64,000 nucleotides of DNA from Cyanobacteria bacterium auto_48_18 (lineage in GTDB: Bacteria > Cyanobacteriota > Vampirovibrionia > Obscuribacterales > Obscuribacteraceae), in contig JAVHQC010000020.1 in the NCBI GenBank assembly GCA_036170915.1, forward strand, positions 114,130-178,129, given 5' to 3'. Below the pieces are notes generated by a model. The model worked only from the letters and a program-made list of their open reading frames with translations, ran no database searches and had not been told where the DNA came from. A program made the translations under genes and the position numbers. Positions within the stretch are counted from its first letter, which is position 1. Each line of letters starts with the position of its first letter. Shown here piece after piece: positions 674 through 64,000 of this stretch.

Positions 674-699
674 ACCTTGGATCGATATCGATCCAAGGT
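674..699. repeat. Palindromic repeat family, copy 1 (26 bp perfect)
   Basis: ACCTTGGATCGAT|ATCGATCCAAGGT, intergenic between divergent accC and hbd. Confidence 0.9.
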
Positions 700-8790: not shown

Positions 8791-8818
8791 AAACTTGGAT
8801 CGATATCGATCCAAGTTT
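8791..8818. repeat. Palindromic repeat family, copy 2 (28 bp perfect)
   Basis: AAACTTGGATCGAT|ATCGATCCAAGTTT, between convergent genes. Confidence 0.9.
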
Positions 8819-9893: not shown

Positions 9894-11201
9894 ATGTCGC
9901 AGTGGAATCGATATGAAGAAGACTACTCCAGCGGCGGCTATCGCCAGGATGTGGCCTATCAGAACGGCATATTTGACGATTATGCGATGCCTAATCGCCA
10001 GGTTAATCGAGATTATGATCGTGGCTATGACCGGTATGACCGTGGCTATGACCGTAATTATGATCGTGGCTATGACCGCGGCAATCTGGCAATGTCCGTC
10101 TCTTTGGGCCCAGTAGATTTTCTTCTCGGTAGTATTGCGAATGGCGGGAATGGCGCTTTTGGCATTCACAGCGGAAGATACGGACACCACCAGGGTCAAC
10201 AATGGGGACGCCAGACCTATTTGACTCCAGACTATAACTATCGGCGTGGCTATGAAGACTTTGGCGAATCATCTTATAACGTCGCTCAGGGATATCGTCC
10301 GCAAACCAGATTCGGCGATTCTTTCCGCCAGGATATTTACGATTCGCGCTTCCATAGGCACCATGACAGAAACCAGATGAACTTTGATCTGCGTTTCGAT
10401 GGAGGCCGCCAGTATCAGTCTGAGCGCTATTCGAGACCTTATATTCAAGAAGATTACAGAAGCTATGAACGTGAACGCTATGTGGAGCCTCGCCCGCGTA
10501 TGCCTGAGCGCGAGTATGTCCAGGAAAATTATGACAGTAACTATTTAGAAGAGACCGTCCAGACTGAGCGCACCCGTGAAGTGCAAACAGACGACCGTCC
10601 AACTCGTACATTGCCGACCAACGCAATGAGCGAGTACGACTGGGCTGTCTACACTAAACTTTGCAATACCGCCGAAGGGCTGATTGGCAAACGCACAACC
10701 GATTATGACAAGCGCGTGCCGACAGACAGGCTGGGTTGCGTCAAGGCCGTGAGCCTGCTCGTTGATCAAGCATTCGGCTATGATACCAATGACGTCAACA
10801 CTCGCACCTTTGAGAAAAATCTGCGCAACAAAGGCTTTGCCGAAGTGGCTGTAAGTGATATTAAGCCGGGCGATGTAATTCTTGGCTATCGCGCTGACGG
10901 TGACTATTCGCATGCCGCTTTGTATATGGGAAATGGCAAAATTTTCAATAACGATAGCGATGCCGGTACGATGCAAATTCAATCGATTGATAAATTCAAC
11001 TCGACTGAATACAAACGCTTTGTGATTTTGCGCCACCCGCCAAAAGTTCCTGGAGTAACAGGAGTAGCTGAAAAGAGCAACACAGCAACCGGTTCTTACG
11101 AAGCCGATGCTCAAATGCAACGCGGCGAGCAGCAGCAGCTGAACGTAGATCCGGAAGAAGATTTTCGGCCGGCTCCAACTCAGTCGCGCGCCAAGCGTTG
11201 A
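9894..11201 (+). CDS. Low-complexity Y/R/D/G/Q-rich N-terminus fused to an NlpC/P60-like (papain-fold) C-terminal domain
   Basis: GCVKAVS (Cys), IKPGDVIL, SHAALYMGNGK (His). ATG 9894 preferred over GTG 9825. Confidence 0.75.
   Translation: MSQWNRYEEDYSSGGYRQDVAYQNGIFDDYAMPNRQVNRDYDRGYDRYDRGYDRNYDRGYDRGNLAMSVSLGPVDFLLGSIANGGNGAFGIHSGRYGHHQGQQWGRQTYLTPDYNYRRGYEDFGESSYNVAQGYRPQTRFGDSFRQDIYDSRFHRHHDRNQMNFDLRFDGGRQYQSERYSRPYIQEDYRSYERERYVEPRPRMPEREYVQENYDSNYLEETVQTERTREVQTDDRPTRTLPTNAMSEYDWAVYTKLCNTAEGLIGKRTTDYDKRVPTDRLGCVKAVSLLVDQAFGYDTNDVNTRTFEKNLRNKGFAEVAVSDIKPGDVILGYRADGDYSHAALYMGNGKIFNNDSDAGTMQIQSIDKFNSTEYKRFVILRHPPKVPGVTGVAEKSNTATGSYEADAQMQRGEQQQLNVDPEEDFRPAPTQSRAKR
10014..10082 (+). repeat. 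Coding tandem repeat, six YDR(G/N) units
   Basis: TATGAYCGNGGC-type 12/9-nt units encoding YDRG YDR YDRG YDRN YDRG YDRG. Confidence 0.9.
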
Positions 11202-14297: not shown

Positions 14298-14326
14298 AAA
14301 CTTAGATCGATATCAATGCAGGGTTT
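14298..14326. repeat. Palindromic repeat family, copy 3 (degenerate)
   Basis: AAACTTAGATCGAT|ATCAATGCAGGGTTT just downstream of the coaBC stop; left arm 13/14 identical to copy 2. Confidence 0.7.
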
Positions 14327-19247: not shown

Positions 19248-19274
19248 AAACTTGGATCGATATCCATCCGGGTT
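19248..19274. repeat. Palindromic repeat family, copy 4 (hybrid arms)
   Basis: AAACTTGGATCGAT|ATCCATCCGGGTT; left arm equals copy 2, right arm resembles copy 5. Confidence 0.85.
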
Positions 19275-19451
19275 CACCGATTAAAGACTTCCACCTCTCA
19301 AATTTAGTCAAATTTAGTACTAAATATGGTGCTAGATTTGCTTTGCACTATTAATAGTCAAAAAACAGCCATTTCAAATAATAGTTTTCATTTTGTTTGA
19401 ACTTTCCCGTTCGATTTTACGTTGAACATAATAGGACCGGGAGGGAAAGTC

Positions 19452-20510
19452 ATGGCCAAGTCAGAAGCTGAAATCGCGCTGGGCATTGCGATTAAGAAGA
19501 CATACAGAGCGTTTAACCGCAAGATAAGAACTGATGGCGACGCTGCCGATCTTATTTTCAATAAACTAAAAAAACAAAAGCGGATTAGATGTCATTGCGG
19601 CTGCACTAAAGTGCATCGCAGCACAGGCAGTCGAATATTTGTATGTCAGGCGTGTAAAGCTAAAACACATTTTACGGCTGGTACTGCCTATGAAGGAGCA
19701 GGACGCTTGCGCGCTAGGCTCGGAGTAATTTATTTCGCGGAGCGTAATCTCATTTTGACGGCTTCGAAAGTAGCGCAACTATTTAAAATTGGTAGCGGCA
19801 CCGCACGCAACATAGTTTTAAATCAGGCGATAATCTTAAATGAAACTATGCCGGATTCTGCTCTCGAGTTAACGGGTCACGAAGTAGCATCTTTGATTTA
19901 TCGCAGAAGTTGTGAAACACCAGCACGGCGACCGCCGTTTGCAGAACAAGAAGAAATTGACAATGAAGTTTCGCAGTCAGATGGTAGCAATAATGCTGGA
20001 AATTGCGAAAGTGATATTACAGAAAACGTTGACGTCGATGGTTTCGCACCCGATCTTAGTGACGCTCAAAAACAAGTTTTCGCTGCACTATCGAACGTGC
20101 CCCGATCGGCAGATGATCTTTGTATTCTAACTGGCTTACCGGCCGGTATCGTAGGCAGTTCACTAGTGATTTTGCATCTCGACAATTTGATTGAAGAGTT
20201 GCCTGGTGCACGTTACACCCGCATCACCTTGCGCAAGAAATCAGGGCCGTTACCTTCATCGCCGAATGATTTTGCCATGCTCGAGATCTTGCTCAAGGCT
20301 TTTCATACTTTTATAAAATTGTCTTCGAAGGGTGTGTCAAGAAAGTCTATGCAGCTTTACTTGGCTCAGTTCTGGTATTACGTTGATAAAGGGCGCTGGC
20401 GTAAAAATGATCTCTTCAATTTATACCTTGATCACGCTCCGCTGGGCCCGCTAGACGTGCGGAACTTCGTTTCTTCAAATCGATTGAAACTGCCATTAGT
20501 TTCAATATAA
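19452..20510 (+). CDS. IS1595-transposase-derived protein (Zn ribbon + HTH, DprA-like winged helix, IS1595-like C-terminus, no recognisable DDE core)
   Basis: CHCG..CQAC..TAGT; LSDAQKQVFAALSNVPRSADDLCILTGL...LPGARY; GVSRKSMQLYLAQFW. ATG 19452 follows a GGAGGG RBS. Confidence 0.7.
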   Translation: MAKSEAEIALGIAIKKTYRAFNRKIRTDGDAADLIFNKLKKQKRIRCHCGCTKVHRSTGSRIFVCQACKAKTHFTAGTAYEGAGRLRARLGVIYFAERNLILTASKVAQLFKIGSGTARNIVLNQAIILNETMPDSALELTGHEVASLIYRRSCETPARRPPFAEQEEIDNEVSQSDGSNNAGNCESDITENVDVDGFAPDLSDAQKQVFAALSNVPRSADDLCILTGLPAGIVGSSLVILHLDNLIEELPGARYTRITLRKKSGPLPSSPNDFAMLEILLKAFHTFIKLSSKGVSRKSMQLYLAQFWYYVDKGRWRKNDLFNLYLDHAPLGPLDVRNFVSSNRLKLPLVSI

Positions 20511-24586: not shown

Positions 24587-24622
24587 TTTAAAACCTGGAT
24601 GGATATCCATCCAGGTTTTAAA
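24587..24622. repeat. Palindromic repeat family, copy 5 (36 bp perfect)
   Basis: TTTAAAACCTGGATGGAT|ATCCATCCAGGTTTTAAA, between convergent genes. Confidence 0.9.
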
Positions 24623-41702: not shown

Positions 41703-41869
41703 CGCTATGTGCCTATCTGGCTAAAATATTTGCCCAATTTTGAAAAAATTGGCAAATATATTGAACTTTTGGGGCTGGTTGGACGTAGTAATAAGAGGGA
41801 ATTACTTAGAATTAGAGTGGCTGAGGTGCAATTCTCAGTTAAGCGCTAATTGGCATTGCCAGGAGAGTC

Positions 41870-44800
41870 ATGAGTCCTCGTCCATACGTACCACTGCATT
41901 TGCACACCGAATATAGTCTGCTCGATGGCGCCACCATGATAAAAGATCTGGTGAAGAAAGCCAAAGCAGAGAATATGCCGGCGGTTGCCATTACCGATCA
42001 TGGTGTCATGTACGGTGCCGTTGAGCTGACAAAAAAATGTCAGGAAGTAGGTGGTCTCAAGCCTATCATCGGCTGCGAGGCTTATATCATCGATGGTGAT
42101 ATTAAAGACAAATCGGCCAAGCAACCGCTCTATCACCTGACTATGCTCTCGCGCAATAAAGAAGGCTATCGCAATCTGGTGCGCTTAAATTCCCGCGCTC
42201 ATTTGCAAGGCTTTTATTACAAGCCGCGCATCAATAAAGAAATGCTCGAGGCGCAAAAAGAGGGCCTGATCATTCTTTCGGGTTGTCTTGGTGCAGAGCT
42301 TTGTCAGCATTTGCTCAAAGACGATTATAAAAAAGCTCTAGAAGTGGCCGACTGGTATAAACAAACTTTCGGCGAAAATTACTACATTGAAATTCAAGAT
42401 CACGGCATGCCCGAAGATCGCAAAGTCAACCGCTCGCTTGTGCAAATCGCTCGCGAGCTAAAAATCAAGTTGACTTGCACAAATGACAGTCACTTCACTA
42501 ACAAACAAGATGCAAAGGCGCATGACTGCTTGCTTTGCATTCAGATGGGCAAGAACGTTACCGACTCCAATCGCATGAAATTTACCGGTTGGGAATACAT
42601 CAAAAATGGCGATGAGATGGCTTATCTTTTTCGCGATCACCTTGATACTGAAATCATTGAAGAGTCGATTTTAAGCACTTTAGAAATTGCCGACAAAGTT
42701 GAAATGGTCAAATTGGCCAGCGAACCACGCTTGCCTAATTTTGAAGTACCGCAAGGGCACACAGCCGAAAGTTATCTCAATCGACTGGTCTTTGATGGGC
42801 TGAGAGAGCGCTTTCCTGAGTGGAATCAAGAAATAGAAGATCGCGCTTTTCGCGAACTAAAAGTAATCGAAGATATGAATTTTGCTTCTTACTTTTTAAT
42901 TGTGGCCGACTTCATCGATTACGCTCGCAAAAAAGATATTCCGGTAGGGCCTGGTCGAGGGTCAGCCGCCGGATCAATTGTGGCTTATGCTCTTGGTATT
43001 ACCAATATTGATCCTTTGCGCTACAACCTGCTCTTTGAGCGGTTTTTGAACCCTGAGCGTAAGAGCATGCCTGATATTGATACTGACTTTTGTATCGAAC
43101 GGCGTGGTGAGGTAATTAAGTATTGCGCTGAAAAATACGGCGAAGACAGAGTTGCTCAAATCATTACCTTCAACCGCATGACCTCCAAAGCCGTCATTAA
43201 AGACGTGGCAAGAGTGCTCGAATTTCCTTTCGGTGAATCAAACAAGCTCGCCAAAATGGTACCGGTTGTGCGCGGTAAGCCAACACCTCTAGATGAAATG
43301 GTGGAGGAGCATCCTGAATTCAAAAAGGTCTACCAGACTGATGATTACGCCAAACAAGTAATTGACCTGGCGCGCAAACTCGAAGGCTGCAACAAAACCT
43401 TTGGTATGCATGCTGCTGGTGTAGTGATCTCTGACGTGCCTATGGAAGAAATGATTCCGCTGCAGAGGAACAACGACGGCACCATCATTGCGCAATACTA
43501 CATGGAAGACGCAGCCTATGTGGGCCTCGTTAAAATGGACTTCCTTGGCCTGCGCAACTTGACCATGATCGACAAAGCTTGCAAGCGCATTAAAGAAGTG
43601 CGCGGCATTGAAATCATTCCTGACAAAATTCCACTTGATGATGAGAAGACTTTCCAGACAATTTCAAATGGTGATCTGGCCGGAGTATTTCAGTTAGAAA
43701 CATCCGCTGGTATGAAACAGGTAGCTCGAGACATGCGCCCTTCCAACATGGAAGACATCTCAGCGCTGATTGCACTCTATCGCCCAGGCCCACTCGATTC
43801 TGGAATGATCGATAAATTTATTGATTGCAAACACGGCAAAACCAAAATTACTTATCAAACGCCTTTGCTTGAGACTATTCTCAAGCCTACTTATGGTCAG
43901 ATTGTTTATCAAGAACAGATCATGCAAATTGCTCAGGTGCTTGGTGGTTACAGTCTCGGCCAAGCAGACCTGTTGCGCCGGGCCATGGGTAAAAAGCTGC
44001 CCGCTGAAATGGAAAAGCAGCGCGCTTTGTTTGTGGAAGGCTGTGCGAAAAATTCGGTCAGTCCTGAAATCGCCAACAATCTCTTCGATATTATGGTGCA
44101 GTTTGCCGAGTATTGCTTCAACAAGTCACACAGTGCGGCCTACGGAGTAGTCACTTATCAAACTGCTTATCTAAAGACACACTATCCTGTGGAATATATG
44201 GCTGCTGTACTTTCTTCGGTTTCGTCAGATACCGACAAAGTGCAGGGTTACATCGCTGAATGTCAGGCTATGAATATTGATATTTTGCCGCCTGATATGA
44301 ATGTATCAGGATCTGACTTTACCTCAGATGGTGGTGCCATTCGTTTTGGACTGTCAGCCACCAAGGGTCTGGGTGACGCCGCTGTGCAAGCCATTGTTGC
44401 CGAGCGCGAGCGCGGTGGTACTTTTGCCACCATGCAAGATTTTCTCGACCGCATCGACTTGCGTCTGGTGAACAAAAAATCGCTAGAATCGCTTATTAAG
44501 TCTGGTGCTTGCGTGGGTCTCGGCATGAGCCGCAAGCAAGCCTTGACCAATCTTGATTCGCTGGTTGATGCTGCCAACCGCCGGCAAACTTCGAAAAATA
44601 CTGGACAGATCAGTTTGTTCAGCTTAGGCGAATCGCAAGGCATCAATTTAGAGACGCCGCTGATTGGCGATCCTTCTGAATTTGGCGAAGGCGAGCTGCA
44701 AACCATGGAGCACGAGCTGCTTGGCTTTTACGTCACCAGCCATCCTCTTAAGCGCATTGCTAATCGATTGCGATATTTGACCACGCACTCGGTCAAAGAA

Positions 44801-63353: not shown

Positions 63354-64000
63354 ATGCAATTTCGCAAGCGCCGGTCTGCCGGCAGCACCACAATTGAGCT
63401 GGCCATAACCAGTTTGCTTTTTGTAATTTTTGCCGTGCTTGGTTTTGACCTTCTAATTGTGACCTGGGGTTATACGGTGCTTGATTCGGCAGCGCGTGAT
63501 GCTGCGCGGGCCGCAGCTTCAACCGGCACCAAGGCCGCTGGTCTGGCTGCTGCACAGCAATCGGCGTTGTCTCACCGCACTGATGGATTTTTTGTCAGTC
63601 AACCAACTGTTTCCTCCACTACTCCTAGCGATTTTATTTATGTCACGCCCGCGATTGGCTCGCCTTATGTAGCGGTAACAACACGTTGCAATGTGCGGTT
63701 GCCCGTGCCGATAAACTTTTTTGGCGCGCAATTGAGCAATGGATTGTTTCCCTTTGCTCGCACTTATACCTATCCTATTTTAGGTGTGCCCTTTGTGCCA
63801 GATCCAGGCACGGGAGCCGCTCCTCCTCCGGTAGTAGCACCGCCGCCCCCGCCTCCGCCTCCTGTAGTGGCACCACCCGTAGTAGCTCCACCAGTTGTAG
63901 CTCCGCCTGTGGTTGCTCCGCCTGTGGTTGCTCCACCAGTAGTTGCGCCGCCTGTGGCTCCACCAGTAGTTGCTCCACCTGTTGTCGCGCCGCCTGTTGT
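63354..64000 (+). CDS. TadE-like pseudopilin with Pro/Val repeat tail; runs off the window end
   Basis: Not in the ORF track. Manual translation MQFRKRRSAG|STTIELAITSLLFVIFAVLGFD...DSAARDAARAAA, open to 64000. Confidence 0.85.
   Translation, partial: MQFRKRRSAGSTTIELAITSLLFVIFAVLGFDLLIVTWGYTVLDSAARDAARAAASTGTKAAGLAAAQQSALSHRTDGFFVSQPTVSSTTPSDFIYVTPAIGSPYVAVTTRCNVRLPVPINFFGAQLSNGLFPFARTYTYPILGVPFVPDPGTGAAPPPVVAPPPPPPPPVVAPPVVAPPVVAPPVVAPPVVAPPVVAPPVAPPVVAPPVVAPPV
63864..64000 (+). repeat. Coding 15-nt repeat encoding (VVAPP)n, at least 9 units
   Basis: GTN GTN GCN CCN CCN units with synonymous third-position variation; one VAPP unit. Confidence 0.92.

Follow-up and report, generated by a model that had tools for sequence, protein, structure and literature searches.

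A domesticated IS1595 transposase derivative with a DprA winged helix and private palindromes, a possible local brake on transformation

In the window (the whole 64,000-nucleotide stretch that was analysed), one gene of the uncultured cyanobacterium auto_48_18 encodes P0001, a 352-residue protein that sequence comparison identifies as an IS1595 transposase shell without DDE core or terminal repeats. It carries a winged helix (WH) of DprA type and belongs to a family whose members are associated with palindromic DNA sites of their own; this anatomy and this protein-site association are well supported by the comparisons below. As to function, we favour, at a probability of about 0.5, the reading that a domesticated, non-cutting transposase acts as a brake on transformation, exerted at specific sites in the neighbourhood of its gene. 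With a little less assurance, we suggest that the family may form a new class, selfish or domesticated, of competence-induced, site-specific ComM traps, in which a private palindrome cloud for each paralog shields a local zone from deletion and leaves the rest of the genome transformable. Features are collected in Table 1; G000 denotes the genome carrying the window and C20 its contig with the window.

Table 1. Features of the P0001 locus, numbered from the first letter of the window unless a contig is named; a dot marks features without strand
Feature	Position	Strand	Basis or remark
Presumed ECF-sigma-type promoter TTGAAC-N17-CGTT, common to comEC, comM, comF, radC	19397..19423	+	motif comparison
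Shine-Dalgarno GGAGG	19440..19444	+	sequence
P0001 gene, DDE-less IS1595/DprA-WH chimera, 352 aa	19452..20510	+	ORF, Pfam, HHalign, AF2
Zn ribbon C47-C49...C65-C68, IS1595-derived	19590..19655	+	alignment of 144 rows, HHalign
Helix-turn-helix (HTH), aa 104-131, IS1595-derived, presumed site reader	19761..19844	+	AF2, HHalign
Conserved motif [KR]RSxxTPAxxHPxxE	19902..19949	+	144-row alignment
Acidic low-confidence linker, aa 167-198	19950..20045	+	pLDDT dip, dN/dS 0.38-0.74
WH captured from DprA, predicted ComM-docking domain	20046..20225	+	Pfam, WH profile, complex prediction, dN/dS 0.06-0.13
C-terminal IS1595-derived helices, GVSRKxxQxYL motif	20262..20492	+	144-row alignment, HHalign
F1 palindrome, gene-proximal cognate copy, ends 178 bp before ATG	19249..19274	.	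kept in G006, G009
F1 palindrome, intergenic, 18.8 kb upstream	674..699	.	same offset in G006
F1 palindrome, between convergent genes, 10.7 kb upstream	8792..8817	.	
F1 palindrome, just after coaBC, 5.1 kb upstream	14299..14324	.	
F1 palindrome, between convergent genes, 5.1 kb downstream of gene start	24592..24617	.	
Sixth F1 copy	C20:105838		8.3 kb before window start

The open reading frame is uninterrupted and has a strong ribosome-binding site, as the preliminary description had it, and the four protein segments quoted there were all found in the same order. Pfam placed DprA_WH (PF17782) at residues 199-252 (E 2.4e-11, above the cut-off) and Zn_ribbon_IS1595 at residues 41-70 (E 0.039, below it), and gave no match of P0001 to DDE_Tnp_IS1595 (PF12762). 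HHalign comparison of a 144-row family profile, made of 140 sequences from HMMER and four others, with 101 IS1595 transposases afforded a probability of 99.9 and an E-value of 3.4e-31, with confident stretches at residues 15-133 and 278-337. The Zn ribbon, TAGT, HTH and C-terminal helices of P0001 are thus homologous to those of IS1595 (ISXO2-like, PF12760 + PF12762), and C49, C65 and C68 of the ribbon have no exception in the 144 rows. The first catalytic motif of IS1595, VEIDD, aligns to ALELTGH, the second D lands in the WH region, and none of the positions aligned to the DDE triad holds a conserved acid in the 144 rows. Just past the first catalytic D, the basic GGxSKGKxGR of IS1595 pairs with the [KR]RSxxTPAxxHPxxE motif of the family, in which R152 (143/144), S153 (139/144), T156 (136/144), P162 (142/144) and E165 (137/144) are conserved. 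AF2 models of P0001 (pLDDT 92, pTM 0.80) and of a WH-less relative (compact and confident, pTM 0.87) both have only short strands, the RNase H sheet being absent from either, for P0001 as judged from the DSSP string. Foldseek searches of the PDB with these models found nothing at E<=0.001, and VIA fold comparison matched P0001 to generic winged helices only (Z 8.6-10) and the WH-less core at a best Z of 3.8; these outcomes are no proof of a new fold. Between the upstream gap and the gene end, no inverted repeat of at least 11/14 was found. The earlier proposal of a non-catalytic IS1595/DprA chimera without terminal inverted repeats is therefore borne out, and of the profiles it named for a check (Zn_Tnp_IS1595, DDE_Tnp_IS1595 and DprA_WH), shell and WH are supported and DDE is absent.

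P0001 is one of ten paralogs in G000 with mutual identities of 22-42%; a weak further match to the family profile at C35:246666 was dropped as NusB-like by eye. HMMER against 1.84 billion representatives returned 672 clusters at E<=0.001, and lengths among the best 150 of them ran from 206 to 423 residues, mostly 330-420. Searches in the bacterial family to which G000 belongs found members in 48 of 60 genomes, and a second comparison in 40 of 47 such genomes versus 0 of 153 that represent ten other families of the class. Because the genomes are related, none of the counts across genomes consists of independent samples. Six family members were covered by the Pfam scan of relatives, and the family tree is a quick version that does not resolve its deepest nodes or in what order the WH was gained and lost. 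One member in the closed genome G160 (G160:C1:3965214-3966192) is split over two frames. Among the loci fetched, nine paralog slots are held in common with G006 and eight with G009. The slot between rimO and a dnaJ-like gene holds the P0001 gene in G000, G006 and G009, and in ten other same-genus loci fetched it holds an unrelated ORF of ~1.25 kb, TPR-like by eye, that has only distant paralogs in G000, so gene-less donors exist at the genus level. On contigs of two other runs, relatives carry the gene in the same slot, with no joint that skips it. Values of dN/dS were 0.08-0.19 in the 11 of 13 family pairs that had escaped saturation, versus 0.01-0.08 in six neighbour genes, and 0.03 for the HTH region (residues 81-133) between P0001 and its G006 ortholog. 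Selection of this kind, with fixed slots common to G006 and G009, indicates a domesticated family under purifying selection rather than neutral decay, in agreement with the earlier suggestion of a domesticated family.

An ordinary or decaying IS1595 element with which the palindromes have nothing to do is accordingly given next to no weight. It would account for the clear IS1595 ancestry and the occasional split copies, whereas the lack of DDE residues and terminal repeats, the divergence and dN/dS of the paralogs, their fixed positions in G006 and G009 and the co-occurrence of sites with the family described below all speak against it. IS1595 elements have a DDE core, terminal inverted repeats and near-identical copies; the P0001 family, in contrast, consists of coreless, repeat-less, divergent and fixed paralogs behind a competence-type promoter. 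A true IS1595 element is present in G003 (L071-L073) as three near-identical 1.0-kb copies with terminal inverted repeats and AT-rich 8-bp flanking duplications; its ends, compared by eye, are unlike the palindromes of the P0001 family.

The promoter TTGAAC-N17-CGTT we take to be of ECF-sigma type, from the ECF consensus and from the same motif before an ECF sigma gene. TTGAAC-N17-CGT stands upstream of 66 of 72 distinct family members, a count that leaves out IS1595 rows and three rows with short upstream sequence, versus 14 of 1593 G000 genes, and the motif recurs in 54 of 60 members from other genera. A matrix built from the family promoters of 67 relatives found 49 sites in G000, which include nine of the ten family members, comEC, radC, comM, comF, yraN, radA, recJ, priA, dnaE, the ECF sigma gene, five DUF6088 genes and several envelope genes; no strict match was found before dprA or the paralog on C4. 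comM itself has the motif before it in 23 of the 29 genomes compared from this bacterial family, and at 0 of 24 comM loci of other families. By motif, then, the P0001 family shares its promoter with competence genes and is a candidate for a competence regulon. The copy at dnaE in the window (~41760-41870, +) is weaker, with a score of 15.3. At C23:45720-47176 of G000, the ECF sigma gene, a candidate competence or envelope-stress sigma, is followed by a likely anti-sigma gene behind the shared promoter. The five DUF6088 genes (C15:59451, C22:31146, C22:109896, C35:228908 and C25:106082) are AbiEi-antitoxin-like paralogs, two of them with a palindrome of F6 type (CAGAGAAA...TTTCTCTG, ~48 sites genome-wide) just upstream, and with F6 they possibly form a second, parallel family of binder plus sites.

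Five copies of the F1 palindrome lie in the window, and the one placed by the preliminary description about 180 bp upstream of the gene is indeed there; it is retained in G009 although the G009 flanks no longer align. An F1 weight matrix gave 18 sites in G000 at a score of at least 14, versus 0-1 in five permuted controls, and a de novo scan of the genome yielded about ten multi-copy palindrome families of 11-63 sites each, versus 0-3 in permuted controls (1-6 for F7). Six G000 members have a palindrome upstream, and F7-like copies lie downstream of three or four; in one clade the sites lie 160-230 bp downstream of the stop codon. The common core is AACCGATATCGGTT, and clades carry their own ~26-bp version beside the gene, with palindrome type following protein clade on the quick tree. 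Mutual information across 44 representatives, with the window gene labelled by a perfect sister copy instead of its own 10/12 upstream copy, revealed no convincing specificity residue. No partner gene was found in G000 for F10, for F8, whose 63 sites mostly form doublets spaced by 24 bp, or for F9, a ~49-bp hairpin in which the outer arms covary. The window also holds a single F6 site (~46155) and a single F4 site (~49367), at or inside called genes, and two low-complexity coding repeats, one DRGYDR-like (10005-10255) and one a Pro/Val-rich 15-bp repeat (63819-64000).

The preliminary description had linked protein and palindromes into one system on proximity only; that link now also has co-occurrence, promoter-side enrichment and clustering at own loci in other genomes behind it. 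An upstream palindrome of at least 11/12 pairs precedes 34 of 72 members versus 31 of 1593 G000 genes, and out of sample 33 of 60 members of other genera versus 27 of 2768 windows. Across 61 genomes, at least five exact core sites occur in 38 of the 49 with a family match versus 0 of the 12 without one; the other 11 with a match have fewer than five. Similarly, sites of the F1 variant number 7, 9 and 12 in the three genomes with a P0001 ortholog and 0-2 in the other 12.

The sites also crowd around their genes. All six F1 copies on C20 lie between -28 and +5 kb of the gene, at the same offsets in G006, and for 20 members the own palindrome numbers 21 sites in 334 kb of own loci versus 6 in 2477 kb of paralog loci. 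In other genera this enrichment of own over other loci falls to 4.6-fold, as each of the 60 loci contains a family gene and they all have one core in common. Among the first 50 of 101 sites listed for G160, which belongs to another genus, 14 are found no more than 40 kb from one gene and 11 no more than 40 kb from a second, the two genes having different arm variants, versus 25 in the other ~3.4 Mb listed, a ~21-fold enrichment. Clouds were also seen in G003, G070 and G096. Within 10 kb of the members in G067 and G077 no extra sites were found, and F4 is dispersed, with no local enrichment. Roles of parS or matS type are not favoured, given several separate clouds per genome and no GC-skew switch on C20.

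How the sites came about can be read from those inside codons, which match mainly in a 14-bp core. Ser/Thr kinase-domain paralogs number at least 67 in G000, with many of them arranged in tandem (for example on C34), and at one aligned codon position only two of the 67 have the F3 core, 3 and 5 kb from the family gene on C8; the other 65 differ at five or more of the 14 core bases. Against orthologs these kinase sites show no indel, the palindromes show no 8-bp target duplications, and the arms of F1-F3 show no covariation beyond consensus, so the sites most likely arose by substitution and were then kept by selection as duplex, putative binding, sites. Two features stay outside that account: the symmetry of gene-proximal sites extends as far as 20 bp (positions 8-13, 0.86 versus 0.44 after shuffling; positions 14-20, 0.62 versus 0.32), and the centres of F5 covary.

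An improbable alternative is a copier with an unrecognised active site that pastes palindromes near its own gene. The models for it are the RAYT/REP(IN) systems, in which the gene of a domesticated transposase is flanked by a palindromic repeat particular to it that also occurs dispersed in the genome, with several systems per genome; a cognate palindrome beside the gene and dispersed copies are likewise found in the P0001 family. Such copying would suit those site families that consist of many identical copies with covarying centres (F5) or doublets (F2, F8), would give a role to the RSxxTPxxHPxxE motif, which otherwise lacks an explanation, and fits the compact, confident model of the WH-less core. 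It is opposed by the missing target duplications, the indel-free in-codon sites, the absent DDE residues and the searches of G000 (86% complete), in which neither an IS1595 transposase nor a Y1 protein (PF01797) was found. P0001 itself has no PF01797 (HUH-Y1) match, and its family differs from RAYT/REP in its IS1595 rather than HUH ancestry, its lack of a catalytic motif, its indel-free in-codon sites, a site density that peaks on the gene and its tie to competence.

A role as competence-phase transcription factors or nucleoid organisers is somewhat more plausible, yet still unlikely. Here the proximal palindrome would serve autoregulation, the dispersed copies would be operators or mark a chromosome domain, and docking to ComM would be vestigial. 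The strong purifying selection on the HTH suits this, a palindrome before the own gene is the classic layout of autoregulation, and in G067 ten of the 20 core sites stand singly upstream of its ten genes. Set against it, sites are enriched in convergent gaps (35 of 84 site-bearing gaps versus 245 of 2426, p 5e-14, by our own simple gene caller), a poor fit to operators, and also occur in kinase catalytic domains; those of one clade lie past the stop codon, and the sites keep clear of the promoter. Moreover, a trans-acting factor gains nothing from a peak on its own gene, and the WH is conserved.

The WH came from the lineage's own dprA, since the family WH profile ranks host DprA (E 1.4e-27) above all ten G000 members. 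The true dprA of G000 lies on C26; in P0001 the DNA-processing core of DprA is absent, with only PF17782 matching. According to one study, the DprA WH binds and recruits ComM in Vibrio and Helicobacter, and the Helicobacter domain shows no DNA binding (10.1101/2024.10.21.619469); ComM is described as required for comigration and heterologous integration in another (10.1101/147660). Complex prediction for the P0001 WH with host ComM scored 0.75 versus 0.00 for the best of three controls, with at least 84% of contacts shared between runs and a partner pLDDT of at least 81, on a scale whose mark is reached by 116 of 157 solved pairs and 2 of 215 mismatched pairs. This pass may reflect the likeness to DprA-ComM, as close cousins of true partners also pass. 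The predicted interface joins WH residues 230-243 to ComM 464-471 and 501-516, and by our residue mapping would fall in the region of the V. cholerae one, described at DprA L350/E353/L354 and ComM L455/R497 (10.1101/2024.10.21.619469). In DprA a helix of LxxEL pattern binds ComM; at the position of its interface Glu, present in 121 of 144 relatives, P0001 has His242. The chimera of the preliminary description stands, with one change to its several DNA-binding modules: the WH more probably serves to dock ComM than to bind DNA, as the complex prediction and the Helicobacter results suggest. P0001 shares with DprA this WH, predicted to dock on ComM, and differs from it in lacking the DprA core, in tethering the WH to a presumed reader of duplex sites and in its His for the interface Glu. 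Judged by the defining features of each, P0001 is a member of none of IS1595, DprA and RAYT.

Some members lack the WH and persist as intact ORFs: 11 of 14 have at least five palindrome cores upstream and a twelfth has a variant array, versus 0-3 cores in 55 WH members. Two WH-less members have no array, and the WH-less rows come from few clades. The arrays (L035-L039, L069, L070, L074-L076, L082, L083 and L088) are tandem repeats of 35-37 bp, up to ~17 units, directly before the promoter, and could pass for CRISPR or iteron arrays.

On the brake reading, induction of competence would lead the protein, most likely in dimeric form, to bind its palindromes as duplex DNA by means of the Zn ribbon/HTH scaffold that once bound transposon ends. 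Branch migration by ComM would then meet a site-bound protein and be held or displaced via the decoy DprA domain, in a trap of Tus/RTP type. Incoming DNA from gene-less relatives would rarely extend across the gene and delete it, transformation elsewhere staying intact, and WH-less members with long tandem site arrays would be plain roadblocks. Sites inside one transformation tract of the gene would hitch-hike with it, which would produce the peak of sites on the gene. A protein made with competence genes only, with sites within a tract and a contact to ComM, would have to act on recombination near its own gene. It is the hotspot paradox that sites promoting replacement of the recipient allele should erode; since sites and gene accumulate here, either the recipient would be protected or the donor favoured. 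Whether the protein blocks or loads is argued from logic only: protection is favoured by how short the cores inside codons are and by the arrays that accompany WH-less members, and the long proximal palindromes and the native role of DprA favour loading. Loss or disruption of ComM slows the deletion of islands, according to PMC11441513.

Loading is the strongest competitor, although we consider it a good deal less probable than the brake. Here the protein would recognise its site in DNA that is being taken up, either folded into a hairpin or once a strand has invaded, and recruit ComM as DprA does, so that site-flanked cassettes integrate better and paralogs assist each other in reaching new slots. 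ComM recruitment is the native task of the DprA WH (10.1101/2024.10.21.619469), the proximal sites are long perfect palindromes, different symmetric outer arms go with near-identical HTHs, and about ten slots per genome have been reached without a catalytic core. Less easily accommodated are the F1-F3 arms, the 14-bp in-codon core, which would be too short for a stable stem, and the WH-less members, which persist as intact ORFs with arrays; in a naive recipient, furthermore, the protein would be missing, and only a paralog able to read the same site could stand in for it. The brake reading has difficulties of its own: DprA's own WH recruits rather than blocks ComM (10.1101/2024.10.21.619469), the complex prediction may reflect likeness to DprA-ComM, P0001 has His242, clouds are not universal, 11 of 49 genomes with a family match fall short of five core sites, the specificity analysis singled out no residue, symmetry over 20 bp exceeds what a fixed operator needs, and the promoter is also found at envelope genes and lacks a strict copy before dprA and the C4 paralog.

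Several known systems resemble parts of the proposed mechanism. In the contra-helicases Tus/Ter and RTP/Ter, a protein bound to a DNA site stops a hexameric helicase; they are a model only for how P0001 might work, as its target would be ComM, its many paralogs have private sites and C20 has no GC-skew switch. The fold comparison, with its generic WH matches, brought up no clear homology of P0001 to Tus or RTP. DUS/USS, Chi and PRDM9 hotspots are short motifs selected for a role in recombination or uptake, also inside codons. In contrast, P0001 sites number tens rather than thousands, are paralog-specific and centre on the gene of their presumed reader, a cytoplasmic transposase derivative. 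Mobile elements that disable transformation are described in PMC11441513 and PMC12378983, namely the AbaR insertion in comM and RocRp; they share with the brake its target, ComM, and its proposed pay-off, escape from deletion by transformation. Unlike these, which as described there act genome-wide by breaking or silencing genes, P0001 would act locally and at sites, and most genomes of the family give a full-length match to ComM. The available part of a review of conflict between elements and competence shows no site-directed local mechanism (PMC12378983). Our search of the literature on domesticated IS1595, DprA chimeras, competence, palindromes and RAYT, with subscription journals mostly outside it, found no description of the family.

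The system implies regulated natural competence in this uncultured lineage. Where transformation purges selfish DNA, elements should fight back, and if the brake reading is true, the P0001 family would have combined the scaffold with which a transposase binds its ends and a ComM-docking domain stolen from DprA into a defence that is local and programmable. Irrespective of the direction in which it acts, it is unusual for the private sites of a putative DNA-binding family to be densest at the family's own genes and to reshape neighbouring codons, and its dozens of natural protein-site pairs would offer a direct handle on the loading or stopping of ComM.
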